In this document: positions 4,770 through 17,244 of the stretch, one piece after another | How the letters are laid out: every line of letters starts with the position of its first letter | How positions within the stretch are numbered: position 1 is the first letter of the stretch | Program-made: the position numbers and the translations under genes | Notes under the pieces: generated by a model | What the model saw: only the letters and a program-made list of their open reading frames with translations | What the model was told of the DNA's origin: nothing | Database searches by the model: none | Source: Actinomycetota bacterium | GTDB taxonomy: Bacteria; Actinomycetota; Acidimicrobiia; Acidimicrobiales; WLNW01 | NCBI GenBank assembly: GCA_009699605.1 | Contig: WLNW01000002.1 | Span: forward strand, 1 to 52,279 | Direction: 5' to 3' | DNA: 52,279 nt

Positions 4770-7700
4770 GTGCCCGACTCGTTCACCCATCTGCATGTCC
4801 ACACCGAGTTCTCGATGCTCGATGGCGCGGCGCGCGTAGGCGAGCTGGTCGCGGCTGCTGCGTCTGACGGGCAGCCGGCCCTCGGCATCACCGATCACGG
4901 CAACATGTATGGCATCCTCGACTTCTACAAGGAGTGCCGCAAGCAGGGCGTTACGCCCATCCTCGGCACCGAGGCGTACATGGCGCACGAGAGCCGCCAC
5001 GAGCGTCCGGCTCGTCGCGGCCGGGTCGACGACTCGGGCGGCGACACCGACGGCGGGGCCAAGCTCTACTACCACCTCACGCTCCTGGCCGAGAACAACG
5101 TCGGCTACAAGAACCTCATCCAGCTGTCGTCGCGCGCCTACATGGAGGGCTACTACTACAAGCCCCGCGTCGACTGGGAGACGCTGGCCGACCACAGCAA
5201 GGGGCTCATCGCCACCACAGGGTGCCTCGGCGGACACGTGCTTCAGTCGCTCATGCGGGGCGACATGGAAGCTGCGGTCACCAAGGCAGCCCGGCTCCAA
5301 GACATCTTTGGTCGCGACAACCTCTTCGTCGAGATCCAGGACCAAGGCATCCCCGAACAGCACCGCACCAATCCCATGCTGTTCGACCTCGCGCGCCGCA
5401 TCAAAGCGCCGTTGCTCGCCACCAACGACAGCCATTACGTGCATCGTCACGACGCGATCGCCCACGACGCGCTGCTGTGCGTGCAGACGGGTTCGCTCAT
5501 GAGCGACCCCGATCGCTTCAAGTTCTCCGGCGACGAGCACTACCTCAAGACCGCCGCGGAGATGCGCCACGTGTTCTCCGAGGTTCCCGAGTCGTGCGAC
5601 AACACCCTGTGGATCGCCGAGCGGTGCAACGTCGAGATCGAGTTCGGCAAGCCACAGCTGCCCGAGTTCCCGCTGCCCGCTGAGTTCGCGCCGCAAGAGG
5701 GCGAGGCCTACGACGTCAAGTGCCGGCAGTACCTCGAGCACCTCACCTTCGAAGGCGCTCGCGCCCGGTGGGGCGCCGCGCTGCCCGACGCCGTAGTCGA
5801 GCGCCTCGCGTACGAGCTCCAGGTCATCGGCGACATGGGCTTCAGCTCGTACTTTCTCATCGTCGGCGATCTCATCGCGTACGCGCGTGGTCGCGACATC
5901 CGAGTCGGACCGGGGCGTGGCTCGGCCGCGGGCTGTGCGGTGGCCTACTGCCTGCGCATCACCGACCTGGATCCGATCAAGTACGACTTGTTGTTCGAGC
6001 GGTTCCTCAACCCGAGTCGCGTGTCGATGCCGGATATCGACATGGACTTCGACTCTCGTTATCGCGACGAGATGATCCGTTACGCCGCCGAGCGCTACGG
6101 CCGCGACCACGTCGCCCAGATCGTGACCTTCAGCCAGATCAAAGCGCGGGCCGCGGTGCGCGACGCGGCGCGCGTGCTCGGCTATCCGTACATCGTCGGC
6201 GACAAGATCGCGAAGGCCATGCCGCCGCTGATCATGGGTCGAGACACACCACTCGCGGCATGTCTCGAGCTCAATCCGAAGTTCGAGGACGGCTTCAAGA
6301 TGGCCTCGGAGATTCGCGACATGTACGCGAACGACGCCGATGCCCACAAGGTCATCGACGTCGCGCGCGGTCTCGAAGGATTGCGCCGCCAGGACGGCAT
6401 ACACGCTGCCGCGGTGGTGATCACCAAGGATCCGCTCACCGAGTACCTGCCGATCCAGCGCAAACCCGAGGCCGGCGGCAACATCGAGAACGCACCCGTC
6501 GTCACGCAGTACGAGATGCACGGTGTCGAAGAGCTCGGTCTGCTCAAGATGGACTTCCTCGGGCTGCGCAACCTCGATGTCATCTCCGACGCGCTCGTGC
6601 TCATCAAGGCCACCTGCGGCATCGATGTCGACATCGACAACGTGGCGCTCGACGATGCCAAGACCTACGAGTTGTTGTGTCGTGGCGACACCATCGGCGT
6701 GTTCCAACTCGAGTCGCCACCGATGCGCGCGCTCATCCGTTCGATGGGGCCCGATTGCTTCGAGGACGTGGCCGCGCTCGTCGCCCTGTATCGCCCGGGT
6801 CCCATGGCCGCGAACATGCACAACGACTACGCCGACCGCAAGAACGGTCGCAAGGAGATCGCCTACCTGCACCCCGACGCCGAGGAGATTCTCGGCGGCA
6901 CCTACGGCTTGTCGATCTACCAAGAACAGGTCATGCGCATCGCCCAGCGCTTCGCCGGATACTCGCTCGCCGAAGCCGACAACCTCCGCAAGGCGTGCCT
7001 TCCTGCCGGCACCAAGATCCTCACCAAGGAGCACGGCTACGTTCCCATCGAGCAGGTGATGCGCCTGCGGTGCCGCGACGTGCAGACCATCGATCCGCAA
7101 ACCGGCAGCAGCCGCTACGAGCCGGTGAACGACGTCTGGTCCGTCGGGGTCAAGCCCGTATACCGGCTCACCACCTCCACGGGCTACACGGTCGAGGCGA
7201 CGGGCAACCATCCTTTCCTCATCGAGGACACGTGGTGTCGACTCGACACGATCGAGCTCGGCGACCTGGTCGGCGTGGCCTCCAGAACGCGCACGGAAGG
7301 TGGGAGCAAGGCGACAACGGCCGAGACCGAGCTCGCGGCGCTGCTCATCTCCGAGGGGTACACCCCGAATCACGCGGCCGGCGTGCATGCGAACGCCCAC
7401 TTCTCGAACACCGACCCGGAACTACTCGATGCGTTCCGCCGTGCGTTCGAGGCGCACTTCGGCTACCCACACGCGCGCAGCTGGACGGATGGGCGCATCA
7501 TCCAACTTTGGCTCACTCGAGCGGAGCTCGCAGCGCTGCTGCCTGCGCTCGGCACGGTCGGGCTTGCCGCCGACAAGTCGATTCCCGACCGAATTATCAA
7601 CGCGTCCGCTCATAAGGTTGAGCGCTTCCTCGGGCTGTACTTCTGTGCGGATGGGTGGGCCGATCGAAGCGGTGCGCACTATGGGTCCAAGAGCCGTGCT

Positions 7701-9560
7701 GTGTGCCTCGCGCTCAAGCGAATGCTCTTGCGCTTCGGCATCGTCGGCAACCTGCATGCTCGCAAGATCGAGGACCATGGCGCGCACTACACGCTCTCCA
7801 TCGCCGACAAGGGCCACGCCAAGGCGTTCACCCAGCTCGTGCAACCGCACCTCACCGCGCAGAAAGCGGCCAAGGTCGATAGGTGGCTCGGCGAGTGGGG
7901 CCATGACACCAGCGCGACCAACATCGGAATCCCCGCGGTCTTCTTGGAGCTCGAGCTCCTCCGCCGGGCCAAGGTCACCGGCCGGTCGGCTCGCTCGCTC
8001 GGCGTTGACAGCGGCGGGTACGTCGCGTCGAGGGTGCTGCACCGCGACACGCTGAACGGCCTGTTGTACTCCGAACGTCTCGAGGATCTGCGCACCGGCG
8101 ACCTGCTCTGGGACACCGTGGTGTCCGTGGAGTACGTCGGCGACAAGGAGTGCTTCGACTTCGAGATGTTGCACCTCGACCGGCCGTACGCCGTCGTCGA
8201 AGATTTCGCGTTGCACAACTGCGGAAAAAAAGATCGCGTCCTCATCCAGAAGGAGCGCGAGAAGTTCGTGCTCGGGTGCGACACCAACGGCTACGGCGCC
8301 GCGCTCGGCACCAAGTGGTTCGACATCATCGAGCCGTTCGCCGACTACGCGTTCAACAAGAGCCACAGCTACGGCTACGGGTACATCGCGTACCAGATCG
8401 CCTACCTCAAGGCGAACTACCCGGTCGAGTACCTCGCGGCGCTGCTCACGAGCGTCAAGGCATCGCTCGACAAGGCGGCGATATATCTCAACGAGTGCCG
8501 CGTCATGGGCATCCGCGTCGCGGTGCCCGACGTGAACGAATCCCTCAGCGACTTCCGGGCGCTGCCCGATCTCGTGTCGTCGACCCACCCGCTCGGCACG
8601 GTGGTGTTCGGGCTGTCCGCGGTGCGCAACGTGGGCACCGGGCTCGTCGAGCACATGGTCAAAGAGCGCCAGGCCAACGGGAACTACTCGAGCTTCTACG
8701 ACTTCTGTGAGCGCGTCGATGTCACCGTGCTCAACAAGCGAACAATCGAGTCGCTCATCAAGGCGGGCGCCTTCGACTCGCTCGGCCACGCCCGCAAAGG
8801 GCTGCTGTCGGTCTTCGAGCGAATCATCGACGACACCGTGGCCCGGCGTCGCGAACACGACATGGGCGTCATGTCGCTGTTCGGCGAACTCGAGGGCGGC
8901 GTGGTGTACGAACGGGCGACCATCCCATCCGACGAGTTCGAGAAGATGCCTCGGCTCGCGTTCGAGAAAGAGATGCTCGGCCTCTACATCTCGGATCATC
9001 CGCTCATGGGGGCCGAGGTTGCCCTGCGCCGGCGCACCGACTGCACGCTGAGCGAGCTCACCGACGCGGCCGATGGCACCATGAAACGGGTCGGTGGGGT
9101 GGTCACGAACCTGCAGAAGAAGTGGACGAAGAAGGGCGAACTCATGGCCGTCTTCGTGCTCGAAGATCTCGAGACCTCGTTCGAGGTCATGGTGTTCCCG
9201 CGCACCATGACCGAGCACGGCCACAAGCTGGTCGACGACGCCATCGTCACGATGCGCATCCGGGTCGACGGCCGCGACGATCTGCCCAAGCTCATCGCCC
9301 ACGAGATCGACATCGTCGAGAACATCGATGTCGGGGTGGCCGCTCCCGTGCGGGTGCGGCTGTCGGCCAACGCGCTGCACCCCAGACTCATCGATACGCT
9401 CAAATCGTTGTTCTCGGAGCACCCGGGTGATTCGCCGGTGTTCCTGCACCTCGACGAGCGGCAGGTGCTCCGGCTGCCGGCGAACTTCTCCGTCGACGCC
9501 GGAAATGGCTTGGTCGCCGAGTTGCGCGTGCTGCTCGGACCTGACGCAATTCTCGTCTGA
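4770..9560 (+). CDS. dnaE: DNA polymerase III alpha subunit (DnaE1), interrupted by an intein
   Basis: PHP-domain N-terminus FTHLHVHTEFSMLDGA, a polymerase core and OB fold. It is 1596 aa, or 1188 aa once the 408-aa insertion is removed. GTG start. Confidence 0.95.
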   Translation: MPDSFTHLHVHTEFSMLDGAARVGELVAAAASDGQPALGITDHGNMYGILDFYKECRKQGVTPILGTEAYMAHESRHERPARRGRVDDSGGDTDGGAKLYYHLTLLAENNVGYKNLIQLSSRAYMEGYYYKPRVDWETLADHSKGLIATTGCLGGHVLQSLMRGDMEAAVTKAARLQDIFGRDNLFVEIQDQGIPEQHRTNPMLFDLARRIKAPLLATNDSHYVHRHDAIAHDALLCVQTGSLMSDPDRFKFSGDEHYLKTAAEMRHVFSEVPESCDNTLWIAERCNVEIEFGKPQLPEFPLPAEFAPQEGEAYDVKCRQYLEHLTFEGARARWGAALPDAVVERLAYELQVIGDMGFSSYFLIVGDLIAYARGRDIRVGPGRGSAAGCAVAYCLRITDLDPIKYDLLFERFLNPSRVSMPDIDMDFDSRYRDEMIRYAAERYGRDHVAQIVTFSQIKARAAVRDAARVLGYPYIVGDKIAKAMPPLIMGRDTPLAACLELNPKFEDGFKMASEIRDMYANDADAHKVIDVARGLEGLRRQDGIHAAAVVITKDPLTEYLPIQRKPEAGGNIENAPVVTQYEMHGVEELGLLKMDFLGLRNLDVISDALVLIKATCGIDVDIDNVALDDAKTYELLCRGDTIGVFQLESPPMRALIRSMGPDCFEDVAALVALYRPGPMAANMHNDYADRKNGRKEIAYLHPDAEEILGGTYGLSIYQEQVMRIAQRFAGYSLAEADNLRKACLPAGTKILTKEHGYVPIEQVMRLRCRDVQTIDPQTGSSRYEPVNDVWSVGVKPVYRLTTSTGYTVEATGNHPFLIEDTWCRLDTIELGDLVGVASRTRTEGGSKATTAETELAALLISEGYTPNHAAGVHANAHFSNTDPELLDAFRRAFEAHFGYPHARSWTDGRIIQLWLTRAELAALLPALGTVGLAADKSIPDRIINASAHKVERFLGLYFCADGWADRSGAHYGSKSRAVCLALKRMLLRFGIVGNLHARKIEDHGAHYTLSIADKGHAKAFTQLVQPHLTAQKAAKVDRWLGEWGHDTSATNIGIPAVFLELELLRRAKVTGRSARSLGVDSGGYVASRVLHRDTLNGLLYSERLEDLRTGDLLWDTVVSVEYVGDKECFDFEMLHLDRPYAVVEDFALHNCGKKDRVLIQKEREKFVLGCDTNGYGAALGTKWFDIIEPFADYAFNKSHSYGYGYIAYQIAYLKANYPVEYLAALLTSVKASLDKAAIYLNECRVMGIRVAVPDVNESLSDFRALPDLVSSTHPLGTVVFGLSAVRNVGTGLVEHMVKERQANGNYSSFYDFCERVDVTVLNKRTIESLIKAGAFDSLGHARKGLLSVFERIIDDTVARRREHDMGVMSLFGELEGGVVYERATIPSDEFEKMPRLAFEKEMLGLYISDHPLMGAEVALRRRTDCTLSELTDAADGTMKRVGGVVTNLQKKWTKKGELMAVFVLEDLETSFEVMVFPRTMTEHGHKLVDDAIVTMRIRVDGRDDLPKLIAHEIDIVENIDVGVAAPVRVRLSANALHPRLIDTLKSLFSEHPGDSPVFLHLDERQVLRLPANFSVDAGNGLVAELRVLLGPDAILV
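6996..8219 (+). mobile_element. Full-length class-1 intein with a LAGLIDADG homing-endonuclease domain, inserted in DnaE
   Basis: The extein junction LRKA|C...HN|CGKKD replaces the Met of the conserved LRRAMGKK motif. Block A is CLPAGTKILT and block B is TGNHPF. LAGLIDADG-like motifs are LAALLISEGYT and FLGLYFCADGWAD. The C-terminal block is VVEDFALHN followed by a +1 Cys. Confidence 0.9.
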
Positions 9561-9693: not shown

Positions 9694-10365
9694 ATGCCGA
9701 TCGAGGTCGAAACCAAGGACTGCACGGCGCTGAGTGATGCCGAGTTGGCCGAAATGGCTGATCTCGGAGGCGACGGTTCGCACCGCTTCGAGATCGGGCA
9801 CTTGTCGAAGCAAGCCGAGGCCTGGGTGCTCATCGCCGTGGCCAAGGAGAGCGACAAGGTCAAGGGCTTTGCGTTCTTCACCCTCGAGCGTATCGGTGGC
9901 ACGCCGAGCGTGCTCATCGGCCTCGGGGCGGTCAAGCGCACCGCCAAGCGCGACAGCGTGCTCAAGGCCATCATCAACGAGCAGATGCGCCGGGCCGTGC
10001 TCGCCTTCCCCGACGAAGACGTGCTGGTCGGCTGTCGCTTCGACAGCGCAGGCGCCTTCGAGGCGTACAAGACGCTGCATGATGTCGTGCCTCGCCCCGA
10101 GCACAAGGCCACGGGCGAGGAGCGGGCGTGGGGTCGCCGGCTCGTCAAGCGATTCGGGATCGACGCCACCGAATACGAGGATCGGGTGTTCGTAGCCCGA
10201 GGCGACGGCGGTGTGCCCTGTGTGCTCGCCCATGCCAGCGCCAAGCCCGACAAGATCAGCCCCGACGTCGAGGCGTTCTTTGAGACGCTCGACGCCGAGC
10301 GCGGTGACGTGCTCATCGCCTTCGGCTGGGCCAAGGCCGAAGACCTCCTCAAGCTCGGTTCCTGA
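9694..10365 (+). CDS. Hypothetical protein (possible GNAT-like fold)
   Basis: A clean 223-aa ORF with ATG start and protein-like composition. I recognise no diagnostic motif. Confidence 0.5.
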   Translation: MPIEVETKDCTALSDAELAEMADLGGDGSHRFEIGHLSKQAEAWVLIAVAKESDKVKGFAFFTLERIGGTPSVLIGLGAVKRTAKRDSVLKAIINEQMRRAVLAFPDEDVLVGCRFDSAGAFEAYKTLHDVVPRPEHKATGEERAWGRRLVKRFGIDATEYEDRVFVARGDGGVPCVLAHASAKPDKISPDVEAFFETLDAERGDVLIAFGWAKAEDLLKLGS

Positions 10366-10400
10366 TCGCGAGCGTTTCTCCGGCGTATCGAACGACGGTC

Positions 10401-11006
10401 ATGGACCTCACCGAGACGTTGGCCCGGCGCCACATGGTGCGCTCGTTCCTTGACCGACCTGTCCCCGCGGCACCGCTGCAACGGGTGCTCGCGGCGGCCA
10501 CTCGGGCCCCGTCGGCCGGCTACGCCCAAGGGCTCGACCTCGTCGTGCTCGATGAGCCGGTGGCCCGGTCGCAGTACTGGGACACGACCCTGCCCGCGCC
10601 GCGCCGCGCCACCTTCCCGTGGCCCGGCCTCCTGGTCGCACCGGTCCTGATACTGGTCTGCGTCGACCCCGGGGCCTATGTGGCGCGCTACGCCGAGCCC
10701 GACAAGCGGGCCACCGGCCTCGGCTCGGGCGCCGATGCGTGGGCCGTTCCCTTCTGGTTCGTCGATGCGGGGATGGCGGCCGAGAACGTGCTCCTCGCGG
10801 CGGTCGACGAAGGACTCGGCGCCTGCTTCTTCGGGGTTTTCGATCACGAGCCGGCGCTCAAGGCGGCGCTCGGCATCCCGGCCGCCGTGCGCACCGTGGG
10901 CACGATCGCTATCGGGCACGAAGACCGCGCCGGCGCCCGACCGAGCCGTTCGTCGCGCCGCGACCGGCGCCCTGTCGGCGACGTGGTTCACGTCGGACGC
11001 TGGTAA
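10401..11006 (+). CDS. Nitroreductase-family protein
   Basis: N-terminus LARRHMVRSF...VLAAATRAPSAGYAQG, and a C-terminus RRDRRPVGDVVHVGRW typical of actinobacterial nitroreductase-family proteins. Confidence 0.75.
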   Translation: MDLTETLARRHMVRSFLDRPVPAAPLQRVLAAATRAPSAGYAQGLDLVVLDEPVARSQYWDTTLPAPRRATFPWPGLLVAPVLILVCVDPGAYVARYAEPDKRATGLGSGADAWAVPFWFVDAGMAAENVLLAAVDEGLGACFFGVFDHEPALKAALGIPAAVRTVGTIAIGHEDRAGARPSRSSRRDRRPVGDVVHVGRW

Positions 11007-11043: not shown

Positions 11044-11445
11044 ATGGCTGCACAAGTTCCGTTGGTGTCGTATCTGGTTCTCGACGGCGCAGGCCCGTAC
11101 CTGTCGGCCCATGTTTGCACCGCCTGTGGTGCGCGGTCCCTCGAGCGCCGCAATGCGTGCCCCAAGTGCGGCAGCGCCGCTGGCTTCGACAAAGCCCGCC
11201 TGGCCGACACGGGCGTGGTCACGTCGTTCACGATCGTGCAGCGCGCGGCACCCGGGGTGAAGGCCCCGTTCATCTCGGCCACCATTGCCTTGGACGGCGG
11301 CGGCGCGGTCACTGCGAACGTCGTCGACACCGAACCCGACCCCGAGCACGTCACGCTCGGCATGCCGGTCACGCTCACCACGTTCGTCGTTGGCACCGCC
11401 GACGACGGCGCCGAAGCCGTCGCGTTCGGCTACGCCCCGATCTGA
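11044..11445 (+). CDS. Zn-ribbon/OB-fold protein (DUF35 family, thiolase-associated)
   Basis: CTACGARSLERRNACPKCGS rubredoxin-like ribbon followed by an OB-fold segment. It sits directly upstream of a thiolase-like gene, which is the usual pairing. Confidence 0.8.
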   Translation: MAAQVPLVSYLVLDGAGPYLSAHVCTACGARSLERRNACPKCGSAAGFDKARLADTGVVTSFTIVQRAAPGVKAPFISATIALDGGGAVTANVVDTEPDPEHVTLGMPVTLTTFVVGTADDGAEAVAFGYAPI

Positions 11446-11512
11446 ATCGCTTCACCCGAATCCGATCATCCCGATCGCACCACCTGCCCGCATCGTTCGA
11501 AGGAGTCCACCA

Positions 11513-12718
11513 ATGGCTGGAGACAATGTCTGGGTCCTCGGGGCTCACATGACCAAGTTCGGCCGTCACGACGACAAGGACGTGCTTGACCTGGCGGCCA
11601 TCGCGTCGCTGGCCGCGCTCGCCGACGGCGGCGTGACCATCCAGGACATGGATGTCATAGGCGCTGGCTCGCTGTTCAACGCCGCGTCGGGCATCGGTCA
11701 GCAGATCCAGAAGCAGATCGGTCAGACCGGTATCCCGGTGTTCAACGTCGTCAACGCGTGCGCCACCGGCGCTACTGCGGTGCGTGCGGTGTACCTGTCG
11801 ATCAAGGCCGGCGAGGCCGACATGGGGTTGGCGGTCGGCGTCGAGCAGATGGGCAAGATGGGCCTGCTTGGCATGGGGGCAGGCGGCAGCGGCAAGACGG
11901 AGTACGTGCCGTCGGGCCGCGACGGGCGGGTCATGCCCACCGAGGGCCTCCTCGGCACCTTCAGCATGCCGGGCGTGTTCGCGCAGGCCGGCATGCAGTA
12001 CCTGTACGAGAACGACGACGTCGATGTCGAGCACTTCTACAAGATCAGTGAGAAAAACCACGCGCACTCCACGCTGAACCCGCTGTCGCAGTACCAGAAG
12101 CGCTTCAGCCTCGACGAGATCAAGGCCGCGCCCATGATCTCGTTCCCGAACACGATGCCCATGTGCTCACCGAACACCGACGGTGCGGCCGCAGTGGTGC
12201 TGATCAGCGAGGAACGCCTCCGGTCGATGCCCAAGGAGGTGCAGCGCCGTGCGGTGAAGATCTCCGCGTCTGTGCTGCAGACCGATCCGTGGGTCGAGTC
12301 GGGCGCCGCGTTGCCCGACGTCAACACCTGCACGCGCAACGCAGCGAAGAAGGCATACGAGATCGCGGGCGTCGATCCGCAGGATCTCGACCTCGTCGAA
12401 CTGCACGACTGCTTCGCCACGGCCGAACTGTTGCACTACGACAACCTCGGCCTGTGCGAGCCGGGTGGTGCGGGCAAGTTCCTCGACGAGCACGGCCCGT
12501 ACCGCGACGGCAAGATCCCGGTCAACGTGTCAGGCGGCCTCGAGTCGAAGGGTCACCCCATCGCGGCCACCGGCGTGGCCGGCGTGTACGAGATCACGAC
12601 GCATCTGCGCGGCGAGGCCGGCGATCGCCAGATCGAAGGCGCGAAGGTCGGCCTCACGCACGTGATCGGACTTGGCTCCACGTGCGGTATCCACATCCTC
12701 GAGAAGGCGTCGCTCTAG
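11513..12718 (+). CDS. Thiolase-domain protein (SCP-x / lipid-transfer-protein type)
   Basis: MAGDNVWVLGAHMTKFGRH, VNACATGATAV, and the C-terminal NVSGGLESKGHPIAATG...GLGSTCG. AAGGAG Shine-Dalgarno sequence upstream of ATG 11513. Confidence 0.85.
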   Translation: MAGDNVWVLGAHMTKFGRHDDKDVLDLAAIASLAALADGGVTIQDMDVIGAGSLFNAASGIGQQIQKQIGQTGIPVFNVVNACATGATAVRAVYLSIKAGEADMGLAVGVEQMGKMGLLGMGAGGSGKTEYVPSGRDGRVMPTEGLLGTFSMPGVFAQAGMQYLYENDDVDVEHFYKISEKNHAHSTLNPLSQYQKRFSLDEIKAAPMISFPNTMPMCSPNTDGAAAVVLISEERLRSMPKEVQRRAVKISASVLQTDPWVESGAALPDVNTCTRNAAKKAYEIAGVDPQDLDLVELHDCFATAELLHYDNLGLCEPGGAGKFLDEHGPYRDGKIPVNVSGGLESKGHPIAATGVAGVYEITTHLRGEAGDRQIEGAKVGLTHVIGLGSTCGIHILEKASL

Positions 12719-12726
12719 ACCCGCCC

Positions 12727-13770
12727 ATGGCTGACAAAGGGGAGCTTCTCGAAATCGTCGACGCGTCGCCCGAAGCGGTCATGGACTACTTCGACGACCG
12801 CGGATGGGGAGACGGGCTCCCGCTCGTGCCGCCCACCGTCGAACGGGTCGAAGCGATGCTGGCGGCGTGCGGCGGGGCCGACCCCGACGAGGTGCTGTCG
12901 GTGCTCCCACCGCGCTTCGGCGAGTGCACCCGACGCATGGTTGCGATCAACGCGGTGCTGGCCGGCTGCCGACCCGATGTCATGCCGGTGCTCGTCACCG
13001 CTGCCCGCGCGCTCGGCCACCCCGAGCTCAACCTGCGGGGCGTCAACGCCACCACGCATCCGGTGGCCCCGTTGCTCATCGTTCACGGCGACATCGCCAC
13101 CTCGGCGGGTTACAACAGCGGACTCGGCGCGTTCGGGCCGGGGAACCGGGCCAACGCCACCACGGGTCGGGCGGTGCGCTTCTTGTTGTTGCACGTGGCC
13201 GGCGCTCGTCCGGGCCCGGGTGACGCGTCCACCCAGGGCCAGCCGGCGAAGTACTCGTACTGCGTGGCCGAGAACACGGCGGCCAGCCCGTGGGAGAGCT
13301 ACCCGCGCTCGGTCGGTGTCGATGCGCCGTCGGCTATCACCTTGCACTGCGGTGAGAACCCGCACAACTTTCACGATATGGAAGCCGATCACCCCGGACC
13401 CATCCTCGAAAAGGCCGCGTCGGTGATGGCCACGCTCGGCGTGAACAACGCACCGATTGGCCAGGGCGAGTACTTCGTCGGGCTCGGGCCCGAGCACGCG
13501 GCGACCATCGCGAGCCATAACTGGACCCGGCGCGACGTGCAGAGCTACCTGTACGAGCGCGCCCGGTTGCCGGCGGGGCTCTACCGTAAGCAGTTCGGTT
13601 CGCTGGCTTGGTTCCCGTGGATGCATGAGGTGCCCGACGATCACCTCATGCCGGCTACCGGCCATCCTGATCACTTCAAGATCTTCGTGGTCGGCGGCGC
13701 GGGCAAGCACAGTTGCGTGGTGCCCAGCTGGGGCATGACCAAATCGGTGACCTTGGCGGTCGCGCCATGA
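12727..13770 (+). CDS. Conserved hypothetical protein (347 aa), upstream partner of the candidate selenoprotein
   Basis: Long ORF with ATG start 8 nt after the thiolase stop and protein-like composition (DYFDDRGWGDGLPLVPPT...). I do not recognise a family. Confidence 0.6.
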   Translation: MADKGELLEIVDASPEAVMDYFDDRGWGDGLPLVPPTVERVEAMLAACGGADPDEVLSVLPPRFGECTRRMVAINAVLAGCRPDVMPVLVTAARALGHPELNLRGVNATTHPVAPLLIVHGDIATSAGYNSGLGAFGPGNRANATTGRAVRFLLLHVAGARPGPGDASTQGQPAKYSYCVAENTAASPWESYPRSVGVDAPSAITLHCGENPHNFHDMEADHPGPILEKAASVMATLGVNNAPIGQGEYFVGLGPEHAATIASHNWTRRDVQSYLYERARLPAGLYRKQFGSLAWFPWMHEVPDDHLMPATGHPDHFKIFVVGGAGKHSCVVPSWGMTKSVTLAVAP

Positions 13771-13804
13771 GCGCCGTCGCCGCGTTCCTCTCCCAGGAGT
13801 CCGC

Positions 13805-14341
13805 ATGAGTCTTCGCGTCTATGCCCCCGACGGTGCGATGGGAAAGCCCCCGGTGCACCGGGCCACTTCGCCCGCCGTGCTCACGAACTTGCGCATCGGC
13901 GTGCTCGACAACGCCAAGCCGAACGCTCGTGCTCTCATGGTGCGAACCGCCGAACAGATCGCGGCGCGCACCGGCGCCCGGCTCGTGCTCGTCACCGACA
14001 AGGGGCCGGGCGGAAACGCGGCCACCCCGTGCACCCCTGGGGTGTTCGACCAACTCGGCGAGGAGGTCGACCTGGTCCTCACCGGGTCGGCCGATTGAGG
14101 CAGTTGCACGTCGTGGAGTGTCCACGACTCCGTAGAGCTCGAAAAGCGCGGCATCCCCACGGTGGTGTTCACCACCACCAAGTTCGAGCTGCTCACGAAC
14201 AAGGTGGCGGCGAGCTTCGGGTTGCCCGACGCGCGTATCGTCACGGTCGATCATCCGCTCGGCGGAACGGACAGGGCGACGATCGAACGGTGGGCCGATG
14301 CTGCGGTCGACACGGTGGTGGCGCTGCTGACCAGCGGCTGA
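13805..14341 (+). CDS. Candidate selenoprotein of the UGSC type, with in-frame TGA at 14096-14098 read as Sec (178 aa)
   Basis: The ORF track stops at 14098, but the same frame stays open for 80 more codons to TGA 14339-14341 with clearly protein-like sequence (GSCTSWSVHDSVELEKRGIPTVVFTTTKFELLTNKVAASFGLPDARIVTVDHPLGG...). The motif around the TGA reads GSAD-U-G-S-C. A hairpin begins 11 nt downstream. AGGAG Shine-Dalgarno sequence before ATG 13805. Confidence 0.7.
14110..14128 (+). promoter_or_regulatory. Candidate bacterial SECIS hairpin
   Basis: GTCGTGG-AGTGT-CCACGAC forms a perfect 7-bp stem with a 5-nt loop containing GU. It begins exactly 11 nt after the in-frame TGA. Confidence 0.6.
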
Positions 14342-14453: not shown

Positions 14454-15380
14454 ATGAAGGCCGTAGTGAACGGGGAGGGCGGCGTGACGGTCGCGGAGGT
14501 CGACGAACCCGATGGTCCCGGCGCACGGCTCGAGATCCGGTCGTCGAGCATCTGCGGCACCGACCTCAACTTCATCGCGATGGGCGCCACGGGCTTCGTG
14601 TACGGCCATGAGTTCGCCGGAGTCGTCGACGGCGTGCCCTACGCGATCGAACCGACCTTGCATTGCGGAACCTGCGACCAGTGCATCGCGGGCCACACCC
14701 AACGGTGCACGAACGGCGCGGCGAACTTGGGCATCTTCGTCAACGGTGGACTCTGCGAACGGCTCATCGTGCCCGAGTACACCCTGGTGCCATTGCCGGC
14801 ATCTTTGCCGGTAGAAGACGCATGCCTCGTCGAGACCGGCTCGGTGGCCATGCACGGGGTGCGCCGCGCGGCCATCGTCCCGGGCGAGCGCGTGGTCGTG
14901 GTCGGCGGAGGCAGCATTGGTCTGCTGGCGGTCGCATCGGTTCGTCATCTCGGTCACCCCGTCGACCTCGAAGCGCGCCATCCTGCGCAGGCCGCGGCGG
15001 GCGAGCGCCTGGGCGCGGGTCGGCCCTCGGGGGCGTACGACGTGATCATCGAAGCCACTGGCTCGGCCTCGGGCGTCATTCGATGCACGGAGCTGGCCTC
15101 ACCCGGCGCGCGCGTCATCCTGCTCGGCGTGTTCCACGACACGGTGCCGCTGCCGGGCATCGTCACGCTGGTGAAAGAGCTCACCTTCACTGCCGCCATG
15201 GCGTACGGCACTTCCGACGGCGTTCGCGAGACCGAGCTCGTCGCGCAGATGCTCGGCGCGACGCCCGAGATCGCCCGCACCGTGATCACCCATCGCTTCG
15301 CACTCGCCGACGCGCCCGAGGCGTTCCGCGTCGCAGGCGATCGTGCGGCGGGTGCGATCAAGGTGGTGCTGCAACCTTGA
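14454..15380 (+). CDS. Zinc-dependent alcohol dehydrogenase family (MDR) oxidoreductase
   Basis: SSSICGTDLNF, GHEFAG, and the structural-zinc motif CGTCDQCIAGHTQRC. Rossmann motif VVGGGSIGL. Confidence 0.85.
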   Translation: MKAVVNGEGGVTVAEVDEPDGPGARLEIRSSSICGTDLNFIAMGATGFVYGHEFAGVVDGVPYAIEPTLHCGTCDQCIAGHTQRCTNGAANLGIFVNGGLCERLIVPEYTLVPLPASLPVEDACLVETGSVAMHGVRRAAIVPGERVVVVGGGSIGLLAVASVRHLGHPVDLEARHPAQAAAGERLGAGRPSGAYDVIIEATGSASGVIRCTELASPGARVILLGVFHDTVPLPGIVTLVKELTFTAAMAYGTSDGVRETELVAQMLGATPEIARTVITHRFALADAPEAFRVAGDRAAGAIKVVLQP

Positions 15381-16213
15381 GCATCACGATCGACCATGCC
15401 GGTCAGGTCGCGCTGGTCACCGGTGCCGGTGCCGGGATCGGACGAGAAATCGCGCGGTGGCTCGCCCGCGCCGGCGCGGCGGTCGCGGTGAACGACATCC
15501 GCGCTGCGAACGCCGACGCCGTCGTCGCCGAAATCGAAGCCGAAGGTGGGCGGGCGGTGGCGGTGGTCGCGGACTGCCGCGACGACGCACAGGTCGAGCT
15601 CATGGTGGCCACGGTCCTCGACCGGCTGGGCGGGCTCGACATCGCCGTCAACAACATCGGCATGCTCCCCAAGGGCCGCGGCACGATGCCGTTCGTCGAG
15701 ATGGACGGCGCCTATTGGCGCGACATCGTCGAGCAGAACTTCGTGCTGGCCGCGCTCTGCGCCCGAGCCGAGGCGCGGGCGCTGCTCGCGCAGGGCCGCG
15801 GTGGCGTGATCCTCTTCGTAACCTCCGGTGAGACCACCCGACCGTCGCCATTCAACTCGAGCTACGCGTCCTCCAAGGCGGCGCTGAACCACCTGACCAC
15901 GTCGCTCGCGGTCGAGCTCGGCCCCGACGGCATCCGCGTGCTGGCCATCGCACCGGGTACCACGCTCACCGAATCGGTCCGTGCCGCGTTCACCGAGGAA
16001 CACGTCGCCCAGATCGTGGGCTCCACCGCACTGCGCCGCATGGTCGAGCACGACGAGTTGGCGCGACTGACGGTGTTTCTCACGAGCGATCTGGCGCGGT
16101 GCATCACCGGCCAGTTCATCCTCGCCGACGCCGGGGCGTTCCTCTCGCGCACCCGACCGCGTAACCTTCGACACGACGAGACTGAACTCACGAAAGGCGA
16201 CCCGCGTGCTTGA
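15377..16213 (+). CDS. SDR-family oxidoreductase
   Basis: VALVTGAGAGIGREIA, NNIG and YASSKAAL motifs. The only in-frame start near the N-terminus is TTG 15377, which overlaps the upstream stop (TTGA). Confidence 0.8.
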   Translation: MSITIDHAGQVALVTGAGAGIGREIARWLARAGAAVAVNDIRAANADAVVAEIEAEGGRAVAVVADCRDDAQVELMVATVLDRLGGLDIAVNNIGMLPKGRGTMPFVEMDGAYWRDIVEQNFVLAALCARAEARALLAQGRGGVILFVTSGETTRPSPFNSSYASSKAALNHLTTSLAVELGPDGIRVLAIAPGTTLTESVRAAFTEEHVAQIVGSTALRRMVEHDELARLTVFLTSDLARCITGQFILADAGAFLSRTRPRNLRHDETELTKGDPRA

Positions 16214-16478
16214 TGAAGCAACGATTGTGCTGGCACTCGACGAGGTGCGTTCCCTGGTTCAGGCCGACGGCGGTGACATGGAGCTGGTGGGGCTCGATGC
16301 CGACACCGTGCGCCTGCGGCTGGTGCTCGAGGGCGCCTCGTGCGAGGAGTGCGTGATGCCTCGCGACTTCCTCGAGCAGATCGCCCTCGACGTGCTCAAG
16401 CGCAACGTTCCCGGTGTCGCCGCGGTGTCAATCGACGACCCGCGCGAACACCCGGGCTACGTACCGTCCGAGCACTGA
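16206..16478 (+). CDS. NifU C-terminal-domain-like small protein
   Basis: LDEVRSLVQADGGDMELVGLDADTVRLRLVLEGASCEECVMP matches the NifU-like pattern (dGGd.elv......v.v.l.GaC..C). Confidence 0.7.
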   Translation: MLDEATIVLALDEVRSLVQADGGDMELVGLDADTVRLRLVLEGASCEECVMPRDFLEQIALDVLKRNVPGVAAVSIDDPREHPGYVPSEH

Positions 16479-16482
16479 GCTC

Positions 16483-17244
16483 ATGCTCGAGCTCGCGGGG
16501 AAGCTCGCATTGGTCACGGGGGGAGCGAGCGGCATCGGTGCCGGCGTCATCGTGGCGTTGCAGGCCCAAGGCCTGCGCGTTGCGTCGCTCGACCTGCAGC
16601 CGGGCGGTCCGGCAGATGTGCGCGTTGCGTGCGACGTTGCCGACGAGCAGTCGGTTGTCGCGGCAACGGCCGACGCAGTGGGTCAGCTCGGTGGGCTGCA
16701 CTACGCGTTCTGCAATGCGGGCGTCGCCGGGATGGGCAGCATCTTGACGATGCCCATGGCCGAGTACGACCGGGTGATGAACATCAACTTGCGGGGCGTG
16801 GTGCTCACGTTGCGCGAGGCGGCCAAGGCCATTCGCGACAGCGGCCAGGGCGGCGCGATCGTGTGCACGGCGTCGAGCGCGGGGATCATGGCCGACATCG
16901 GCATGGTGCACTACTCGCTGGCCAAGATGGGGGTGCGCCAACTGGTCCGCGTCGCGGCACGCGAGCTGGCTGTGCACGGCATCCGCGTGAACGCCGTCGC
17001 CCCCGGGCCCACGGTGACACCGATGCTCGACGGTGCGGCCGAGATGACCGGCTACTTCGAGCATCTGGCCGCGATCACGCCGCTCGGGCGGCTCGGCACC
17101 GTCGAGGACATCGTCGACGCCGTGCTCGCCCTCTTCGCGCTGAAATGGGTCACCGGTCAGACGCTGGCGGCCGATGGCGGGGTCACGGTGTGCTCCAGCA
17201 CCGACGTGCCGGGCATCGATGCCGAGGCGTTGGCGTCATGGTGA
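16483..17244 (+). CDS. SDR-family oxidoreductase
   Basis: LALVTGGASGIG, NAGV and YSLAKMGV motifs. Confidence 0.85.
   Translation: MLELAGKLALVTGGASGIGAGVIVALQAQGLRVASLDLQPGGPADVRVACDVADEQSVVAATADAVGQLGGLHYAFCNAGVAGMGSILTMPMAEYDRVMNINLRGVVLTLREAAKAIRDSGQGGAIVCTASSAGIMADIGMVHYSLAKMGVRQLVRVAARELAVHGIRVNAVAPGPTVTPMLDGAAEMTGYFEHLAAITPLGRLGTVEDIVDAVLALFALKWVTGQTLAADGGVTVCSSTDVPGIDAEALASW

Follow-up and report, generated by a model that had tools for sequence, protein, structure and literature searches.

A gene on contig WLNW01000002.1 of an Actinomycetota bacterium (assembly GCA_009699605.1, class Acidimicrobiia) is interrupted by an in-frame TGA which, in our view, very probably encodes selenocysteine (Sec). 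The gene lies at positions 13805-14341 of the 52,279-nucleotide stretch analyzed here (the window), and we conclude with high confidence that it is a Sec-encoding member of the known UGSC family which gene callers have mis-split. This is the recognition of an already known family and not a new kind of gene; UGSC has been known since 2005-2008, and curated Pfam and NCBIfam models of it exist. The elements of the gene, including a hairpin of the selenocysteine insertion sequence (SECIS) type, are as follows, with lengths of proteins in amino acids (aa).

13795-13799, + strand: Shine-Dalgarno-like AGGAG, 5 nt before ATG 13805, read from the sequence
13805-14341, + strand: selenoprotein gene of the UGSC family, 178 codons (Sec98 among them) and a stop codon; Pfam and NCBIfam matches extend across the TGA
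14096-14098, + strand: UGA read as selenocysteine (Sec98), first residue of U-G-S-C; the column is the invariant Cys of CGSC in homologs
14110-14128, + strand: SECIS-type hairpin within the coding sequence, 11 nt after the UGA; pairing kept in Sec forms
14339-14341, + strand: true stop codon TGA of the selenoprotein gene, from the reading frame; TGA is the normal stop in the window

A single frame extends from ATG 13805 to the TGA ending at 14341, and its sole interruption is the TGA at 14096-14098, with 97 codons before it and 80 open codons beyond it. The G+C content at third codon positions is 0.85 for 14099-14341, which is coding-like for a window of 67.7% G+C, and the peptide around Sec98 reads ...LTGSAD-U-GSCTSWSVHDSVELEK, so that the motif stands in the context ...LTGSAD-U-GSC-TSW.... 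Because TGA is the ordinary stop in 31 of the 34 confident genes of the window, the selenoprotein gene itself among them, the codon has not been reassigned; nor did a scan of the window reveal any other gene with an internal in-frame TGA beyond ordinary gene boundaries. Public gene calls split the gene into open reading frames (ORFs) of 97 and 59 aa in every call listed for contigs with near-identical or identical copies, the 59-aa ORF beginning at GTG 14162 with no comparable Shine-Dalgarno motif before it; in the annotation of four such public contigs (L087-L090), a pair of hypothetical ORFs of these lengths stands in place of the selenoprotein. An index of public assemblies has this exact 97-aa product in 116 of its blocks, and the contigs concerned reach 0.2-1 Mb in length; this excludes sequencing error and implies that the organism is common in sequenced environments.

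Family membership is supported on both sides of the TGA. With Sec written as Cys for profile matching, the 178-aa product matches Pfam PF24696 (UGSC) with 150.3 bits against a gathering threshold of 25 (residues 15-176 on profile positions 12-171 of 172), and NCBIfam NF041046 with 120.9 bits (residues 29-176 on profile positions 3-147 of 147), both alignments spanning the TGA; moreover, either half of the product alone matches the corresponding half of NF041046, and both public ORFs match the UGSC Pfam model. A search of 5.8 billion proteins returned 290 matches, of which we analyzed the best 120: CGSC occupies the TGA column in 118, all of them full-length single chains of 173-293 aa, and in the remaining two, P0080 and P0118, the product is 97 aa long and stops precisely at the position of the TGA in the window. 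In the homolog alignment C98, G99, S100, and C101 are invariant, and the column follows a TGxAD strand; GSCTSWSVHD is the most conserved motif of the family, and the other invariant motifs are LDNxKPNA, TxKG, TTTxF, and HPLGG.

An initial annotation made from the DNA sequence alone had anticipated much of this. It had noted the frame staying open for 80 codons past the TGA and quoted the downstream peptide correctly; it had predicted that gene callers would truncate or miss the gene, as all listed public calls do; and it had given the family name 'UGSC family (seleno)protein', which is indeed that of NF041046. The homologs likewise bear out its expectation of Cys at the TGA column (save for the two that end there) and of single polypeptides in place of separate 97-aa and 80-aa genes, and the conservation it proposed for the sequence beyond the TGA is evident from the comparison of loci that follows.

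We examined the DNA behind P0080 and P0118 (L001 and L002), the genome loci L003-L005 (L003 being an Acidimicrobiia metagenome-assembled genome, L004 an uncultured actinobacterial one with a 1-Mb contig, and L005 Ca. Microthrix UBA2983), and 80 metagenome loci. The codon at the UGSC column of the 86 UGSC genes over all these loci is TGA in 24, TGC in 54, and TGT in 8. TGA is kept in the window and in 23 other loci whose proteins are between 99% and about 50% identical to that of the window, and no frameshift or second stop was found in any TGA form. For the 78-80 codons after the TGA, the ratio of nonsynonymous to synonymous substitution (dN/dS) is 0.2-0.4 against every Sec-form relative, with dS of 0.7-1.4 and thus near saturation. 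We conclude that the stretch past the TGA is translated and under purifying selection, which excludes a pseudogene.

The minimal SECIS of Escherichia coli fdhF is the upper stem-loop 11 nt after the UGA, and it is bound by SelB. In the window, GTCGTGG-AGTGT-CCACGAC at 14110-14128 is separated from the UGA by the 11 nt at 14099-14109, just as the initial annotation had described it, a perfect hairpin with GU in its loop; it can fold with a 7-bp stem and an AGTGT loop or with 8 bp and a GUG triloop (-11.1 kcal/mol). Taken from this single sequence, the evidence is modest: the 61-nt region is no more stable than its dinucleotide shuffles (z = -0.95), and a comparable perfect hairpin lies 9-13 nt downstream of 0.64% of all TGA triplets in the window. 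The evidence becomes strong only through comparison with other loci and, single-sequence folding being unremarkable, it is on comparison that we have built the case.

Specifically, i) the 19-nt hairpin is the same in every TGA form but one (23 of 24, or 20 of the 21 distinct Sec-form sequences), and the exception, L086 from a lower-G+C organism, reads GTCATGG...CCATGAC, a compensatory change from G-C to A-U that is synonymous on both sides (TCG to TCA and CAC to CAT); ii) RNAalifold applied to the 21 distinct Sec-form sequences returns exactly this hairpin with every cell paired, and a shift of the 3′ arm by 1-3 columns reduces pairing to 28-57%; iii) the codons flanking the hairpin (Gly99, Ser100, Val110, Leu112, and Glu113) are free to vary synonymously in Sec forms, and Sec forms, but not Cys forms, show a dip in synonymous diversity over codons 102-108, their third-position diversity at Thr102, Ser103, and Val106 being 0-0.09 as against 0.5-0.6 in Cys forms; and iv) in a codon control, made up of the 19 Cys-form genes whose product also has the peptide T-S-W-S-V-H-D, the Ser codon of the loop is AGC in 19/19 where Sec forms have AGT in 24/24, the Val codon is GTG in 15/19 where Sec forms have GTC in 24/24, and the full 7-bp stem is retained in 4/19. 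The SECIS assignment put forward initially is therefore backed by the contrast in codons between Sec and Cys forms and by a single compensatory pair; the weight of the evidence lies in that pair and in the invariance of the hairpin within a Sec group whose synonymous sites are saturated elsewhere.

Two further observations concern the hairpin and its surroundings. The four Cys forms with a perfect 7-bp stem, GTCGTGGAGCGTCCACGAC, have AGC in the loop, and may represent 'fossil' SECIS elements persisting after a switch from Sec to Cys. Immediately before the UGA, the codon for Asp97 (14093-14095) is GAT in 22 of 23 Sec forms as against GAC in 53 of 59 Cys forms, and Ser95 (TCG) and Ala96 (GCC) are almost fixed in Sec forms; this pattern of codons suggests that the 5′ context of the UGA is also under selection.

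By analogy with the known action of bacterial SECIS elements, we can propose how the codon would be decoded. A ribosome at the UGA (14096-98) would have the hairpin 14110-14128 located 11 nt downstream, with G and U exposed in its small loop; SelB carrying Sec-tRNA(Sec) would be expected to occupy the hairpin, and Sec would be inserted in place of termination.

Several results weigh against reading the gene as a selenoprotein of this family, or against the strength of the case for it: i) the NF041046 score falls about 4 bits short of the curated cutoff of 125 for what is an equivalog model, and although this is not contrary to membership at the Pfam level, NF041046 alone would leave the protein unnamed; ii) the Sec forms are one deep group in a neighbor-joining tree (the Cys forms are two clades), so the contrast in codons may stem from a single historical switch, and the compensatory event in L086 is the only one; iii) Rfam gives no SECIS match in the window at the gathering threshold, nor at E ≤ 10 on 14050-14200, a null that carries no information, Rfam coverage of bacterial SECIS elements being poor; iv) the bulged U of the fdhF SECIS is absent; and v) no machinery for Sec was seen near the gene, Pfam scans finding no SelA, SelB, or SelD domains among 40 proteins scanned from the 52-kb window, the roughly 9 kb beyond its upstream end being a dcw cell-division cluster with no sel genes, and ARAGORN detecting no tRNA, hence no tRNA-Sec, in the window or in 20 related loci.

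The fourth of these points also limits the likeness to the minimal fdhF SECIS, for which the initial annotation had claimed a match in spacing and loop content. The 11-nt spacing and the small G-U loop do hold, as do the intragenic position and the constraint on synonymous sites; the bulged U does not, the stem being perfect in 21 of 21 sequences, and the two elements differ as well in the loop (AGUGU or GUG here, GGUC in fdhF) and in the extended lower stem, which is not conserved here. Individual sequences can form a lower stem, but the pairings are not shared across loci, and RNAalifold keeps the upper hairpin only. Since the bulged U is missing and Rfam gives no match, we describe the element as SECIS-type and not as a member of the fdhF type.

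What else could an in-frame TGA with coding sequence on both sides be? It could be read through without selenium, a near-cognate tRNA inserting Trp, Cys, Arg, or Gly, with the hairpin merely stimulating the event and no Sec machinery at all. That no sel genes were seen in the window or in the 9 kb upstream accords with this, as does the textbook observation that downstream structures can promote stop read-through generally. We nevertheless consider it very unlikely, because the column is an invariant, catalytic-type Cys in the Cys forms, an exchange of Sec and Cys of the classic kind, and the U/CxxC motif would be lost with Trp or Gly in this place; because the spacing and loop content of the hairpin fit SelB-type SECIS elements; because UGSC is documented as a selenoprotein in Sec-trait genomes (PMC5029168; PMC2398784), with UGSC selenoproteins catalogued in 26 sequenced bacterial genomes having that trait (PMC5029168); and because Sec machinery is present in another order of Acidimicrobiia, the Actinomarinales, where selA, selB, selC, and selD are reported in all 84 complete Actinomarina genomes (bioRxiv 10.64898/2026.04.03.716425, preprint 2026).

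A gene recently inactivated by mutation of a Cys codon, TGC or TGT, to TGA, and now yielding a 97-aa fragment or nothing, is a still poorer explanation. Only one base separates TGC from TGA, and a 97-aa product is just what gene callers report; but the same TGA recurs in 23 other loci at about 50-99% identity, the identical sequence recurs in many independent assemblies, the downstream codons combine a dN/dS of 0.2-0.4 with freedom from frameshifts and extra stops, and a hairpin specific to TGA forms has been maintained, compensatory change included. These comparative data effectively refute a pseudogene, and we regard one as extremely improbable. The stretch could also be two genes, the first encoding 97 aa and ending at 14098, the second encoding 59 aa from GTG 14162. 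This would agree with the public gene calls, which contain both ORFs, and with the match of each to the UGSC Pfam model. The Cys homologs are, however, all single chains of 173-194 aa; the 21 codons between the two ORFs (14099-14161) hold the core motif GSCTSWSVHD, which would stay untranslated; GTG 14162 has no Shine-Dalgarno sequence; and the split would halve what is predicted by structural modeling to be a continuous five-strand sheet. Single-chain homologs, an untranslated core motif, and the missing Shine-Dalgarno sequence effectively refute this arrangement, to which we assign next to no probability.

Having set these aside in favor of a Sec-encoding UGSC gene, we turn to the protein. 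The AlphaFold2 (AF2) model considered is that of P0001, a Cys homolog 71% identical to the window protein (predicted local distance difference test, pLDDT, 90.4; predicted template modeling score, pTM, 0.86). It is built from five parallel beta-alpha units. Helix 98-113 begins at the U/C column, right after strand 89-93, with Cys101 one turn further, and LDNxKPNA, TxKG, TTTxF, and HPLGG are located at or just past the C-terminal ends of the predicted strands. Foldseek searches of the PDB return generic flavodoxin-like matches (probability 0.96-1.0, TM score about 0.4-0.5, identity 9-19%), and none of the 50 best PDB matches listed has a thioredoxin fold. Hidden Markov model searches found no PDB sequence relatives of UGSC, and a permissive Pfam scan of the alignment found nothing consistent. 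The prediction for the protein is thus an alpha/beta domain with five strands and a flavodoxin- or Rossmann-like fold, and the thioredoxin-like fold suggested in the literature is rejected on the strength of the AF2 and Foldseek results.

Flavodoxin, the flavodoxin domain of flavodiiron proteins, the EIIB-lactose component of the phosphotransferase system (PTS), and B12-binding domains all share with the model the topology of five parallel beta-alpha units; there is no flavin- or B12-binding motif, and the likeness is generic to the fold and silent on function. In the model, Sec98 would lie at the N-terminal end of a helix with Cys101 one turn on, a geometry that would fit a reversible selenenyl-sulfide (U-x-x-C) redox center, and with U/CxxC at a helix N-terminus the chemistry may be analogous to that of thioredoxin-fold oxidoreductases. 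From the modeled fold and the position of the invariant motifs we infer a selenenyl-sulfide U-x-x-C center on a flavodoxin-like scaffold with a conserved face that would bind a ligand or a partner.

Gene neighborhoods provide candidates for such a partner. Three neighbors are relevant.

12727-13770, + strand: conserved partner gene, 347 aa; no Pfam or NCBIfam family; invariant C81, C179, and C208
15377-16213, + strand: short-chain dehydrogenase (SDR); Pfam adh_short_C2, 4e-53; start taken from the gene call on L087
16206-16478, + strand: NifU-like protein, 90 aa, with CxxC (SCEECVMP), four genes downstream of UGSC; Pfam PF01106 on the identical gene in L087

Among loci with sufficient flanking sequence, UGSC is immediately preceded by the gene for the 347-aa partner in 16 of 18 Sec forms and in all 46 Cys forms (62 of 64), and the two loci lacking an adjacent partner belong to one Sec-form subclade. 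The partner has at least 3739 homologs; among the best 120, all that carry a source name are called hypothetical, identities among them are 68-89%, and the named sources are Acidimicrobiia, Myxococcota, and others. Characteristic motifs are WGDGLP, NATTHPVAP, HCGExPHNxHDM, and GGxGKHSxxxPSWGMT. We could assign the partner to no Pfam or NCBIfam family, a permissive Pfam scan of its alignment gave nothing consistent, and there are no sequence relatives in the PDB; its AF2 model (pLDDT 79) has weak matches, the best being the alpha subunit of an iron-sulfur (Fe-S) class I fumarate hydratase with E = 2.7e-3 and a TM score of about 0.3.

Where the pairing is broken or doubled, the loci are instructive in their own right. 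UGSC without a preceding partner was seen in L004 and L092 (the same 1.01-Mb contig) and also in L007 and L008, all within one Sec-form subclade; in the L004 genome the contig with UGSC also has a partner homolog (P0131), at a distance of about 30 kb and surrounded by genes of catabolism (Rieske/KshA, TauD, amidohydrolase, CoA-transferase, and thiolase). Conversely, the 3.55-Mb contig of L006 has two divergent partner-plus-UGSC pairs back to back, both Cys forms (8236-8799, - strand, and 10001-10543, + strand), which implies that the module was duplicated as a unit.

The NifU-like gene adjoins UGSC in 13 loci, and the same NifU-like domain is fused to the C-terminus of UGSC in P0089, P0090, P0105, and P0110 (265-289 aa), a Rosetta-stone link; it may be the fusion domain called 'Unknown_1' in PMC2398784. 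SDR homologs of more than 50% identity are found within 1.5 kb downstream of UGSC in 12 of 49 informative loci, and either the NifU-like gene or the SDR follows UGSC in 15 of these 49.

Gene order would make the 347-aa upstream protein, with its three invariant Cys residues and a motif rich in His and Cys, the most likely working context of the selenoprotein, and gene order together with the fusions suggests that the selenoprotein could be a redox-active small subunit, or a dedicated electron or thiol partner, of the 347-aa protein; by the same token, the NifU-like CxxC protein would also be involved in many genomes. We tentatively propose, as a possibility that we rate below an even chance, that UGSC is the selenium-bearing small subunit of a widespread and wholly uncharacterised two-component enzyme and not a free-standing antioxidant thiol/selenol protein, with the 347-aa protein, whose fold weakly resembles alpha subunits of Fe-S hydro-lyases, as the large subunit and the NifU-like CxxC domain as a third, sometimes fused, component. 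It counts against this proposal that the link to the partner and to the NifU-like protein consists wholly of gene order and fusion, and that fold searches returned no specific relative of UGSC or of the partner. If true, aerobic Actinomycetota, Myxococcota, and other phyla would share a selenoenzyme system that is new.

UGSC was first described in the Sargasso Sea and Global Ocean Sampling (GOS) selenoproteome surveys of Zhang & Gladyshev (PMC2398784), where it is among the most abundant predicted selenoprotein families in aquatic metagenomes and, for non-marine aquatic samples, the one used most often; GOS yielded 255 sequences with Sec and 21 with Cys, and the authors called the protein 'likely Trx-like fold' and noted its occasional fusion to a domain named 'Unknown_1' (PMC2398784). 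UGSC counts as a major predicted family of prokaryotic selenoproteins, and recent reviews continue to place it, with NF041046, among families of uncharacterised function (PMC9312934, PMC13188914). The window gene resembles the known family in its length of about 175-180 aa, in U-G-S-C at the same column, in the occurrence of both Sec and Cys forms, and in the hairpin after the UGA, and nothing essential is different. Cys forms outnumber Sec forms by 62 to 24 in our sample, which is biased toward soil and freshwater, the reverse of the proportion in GOS, and the fold predicted by AF2 is flavodoxin- or Rossmann-like as against the thioredoxin-like guess in the literature.

GrdA and GrdB of glycine reductase and PrdB of proline reductase are small redox selenoproteins with U-x-x-C or C-x-x-U centers that serve a dedicated enzyme. 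UGSC is like them in being a small Sec/Cys redox protein next to a larger neighboring gene for a presumed partner, and in having interchangeable Sec and Cys forms; it differs in that no sequence or fold relationship to them is detectable, the partner here is not GrdE or PrdA, and GrdA/GrdB and PrdB belong to Stickland fermentation operons, whereas UGSC here is found in aerobic Actinomycetota chromosomes beside thiolase, SDR, and alcohol dehydrogenase genes.

We wish to emphasize that the main value of these results is in annotation: with the gene split into 97-aa and 59-aa 'hypothetical' ORFs, both the proteome of the organism and its selenium requirement are mis-stated. The gene is also a clean case, in Acidimicrobiia-like Actinomycetota, of a SECIS lying within coding sequence for which the codons of Cys forms serve as a control to those of Sec forms; use of Sec in this group is only now being documented. 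UGSC has been known as an abundant family for nearly twenty years without a known role, and pairing with the 347-aa protein and fusion to a NifU-like domain now provide concrete and testable partners. Three leads are new: an unannotated partner that is nearly obligate, the fusion to a NifU-like domain, and a fold that is flavodoxin-like rather than thioredoxin-like; the partner, being a large uncharacterised family that is very strongly conserved, is worth a study of its own.

Around the UGSC pair, the window has genes of lipid or steroid-side-chain type. On the upstream side (11044-12718, + strand) are a ChsH2-like protein with OB-fold and zinc ribbon and an SCP-x-type thiolase ('lipid-transfer protein'), and downstream (14454-17244, + strand) are a Zn-dependent alcohol dehydrogenase and two SDRs; with the exception of the first SDR, such flanks are not conserved elsewhere. 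Farther upstream (4770-9560, + strand), dnaE encodes a DNA polymerase III alpha subunit of 1596 aa with an intein containing a LAGLIDADG homing-endonuclease domain at residues ~770-1135.

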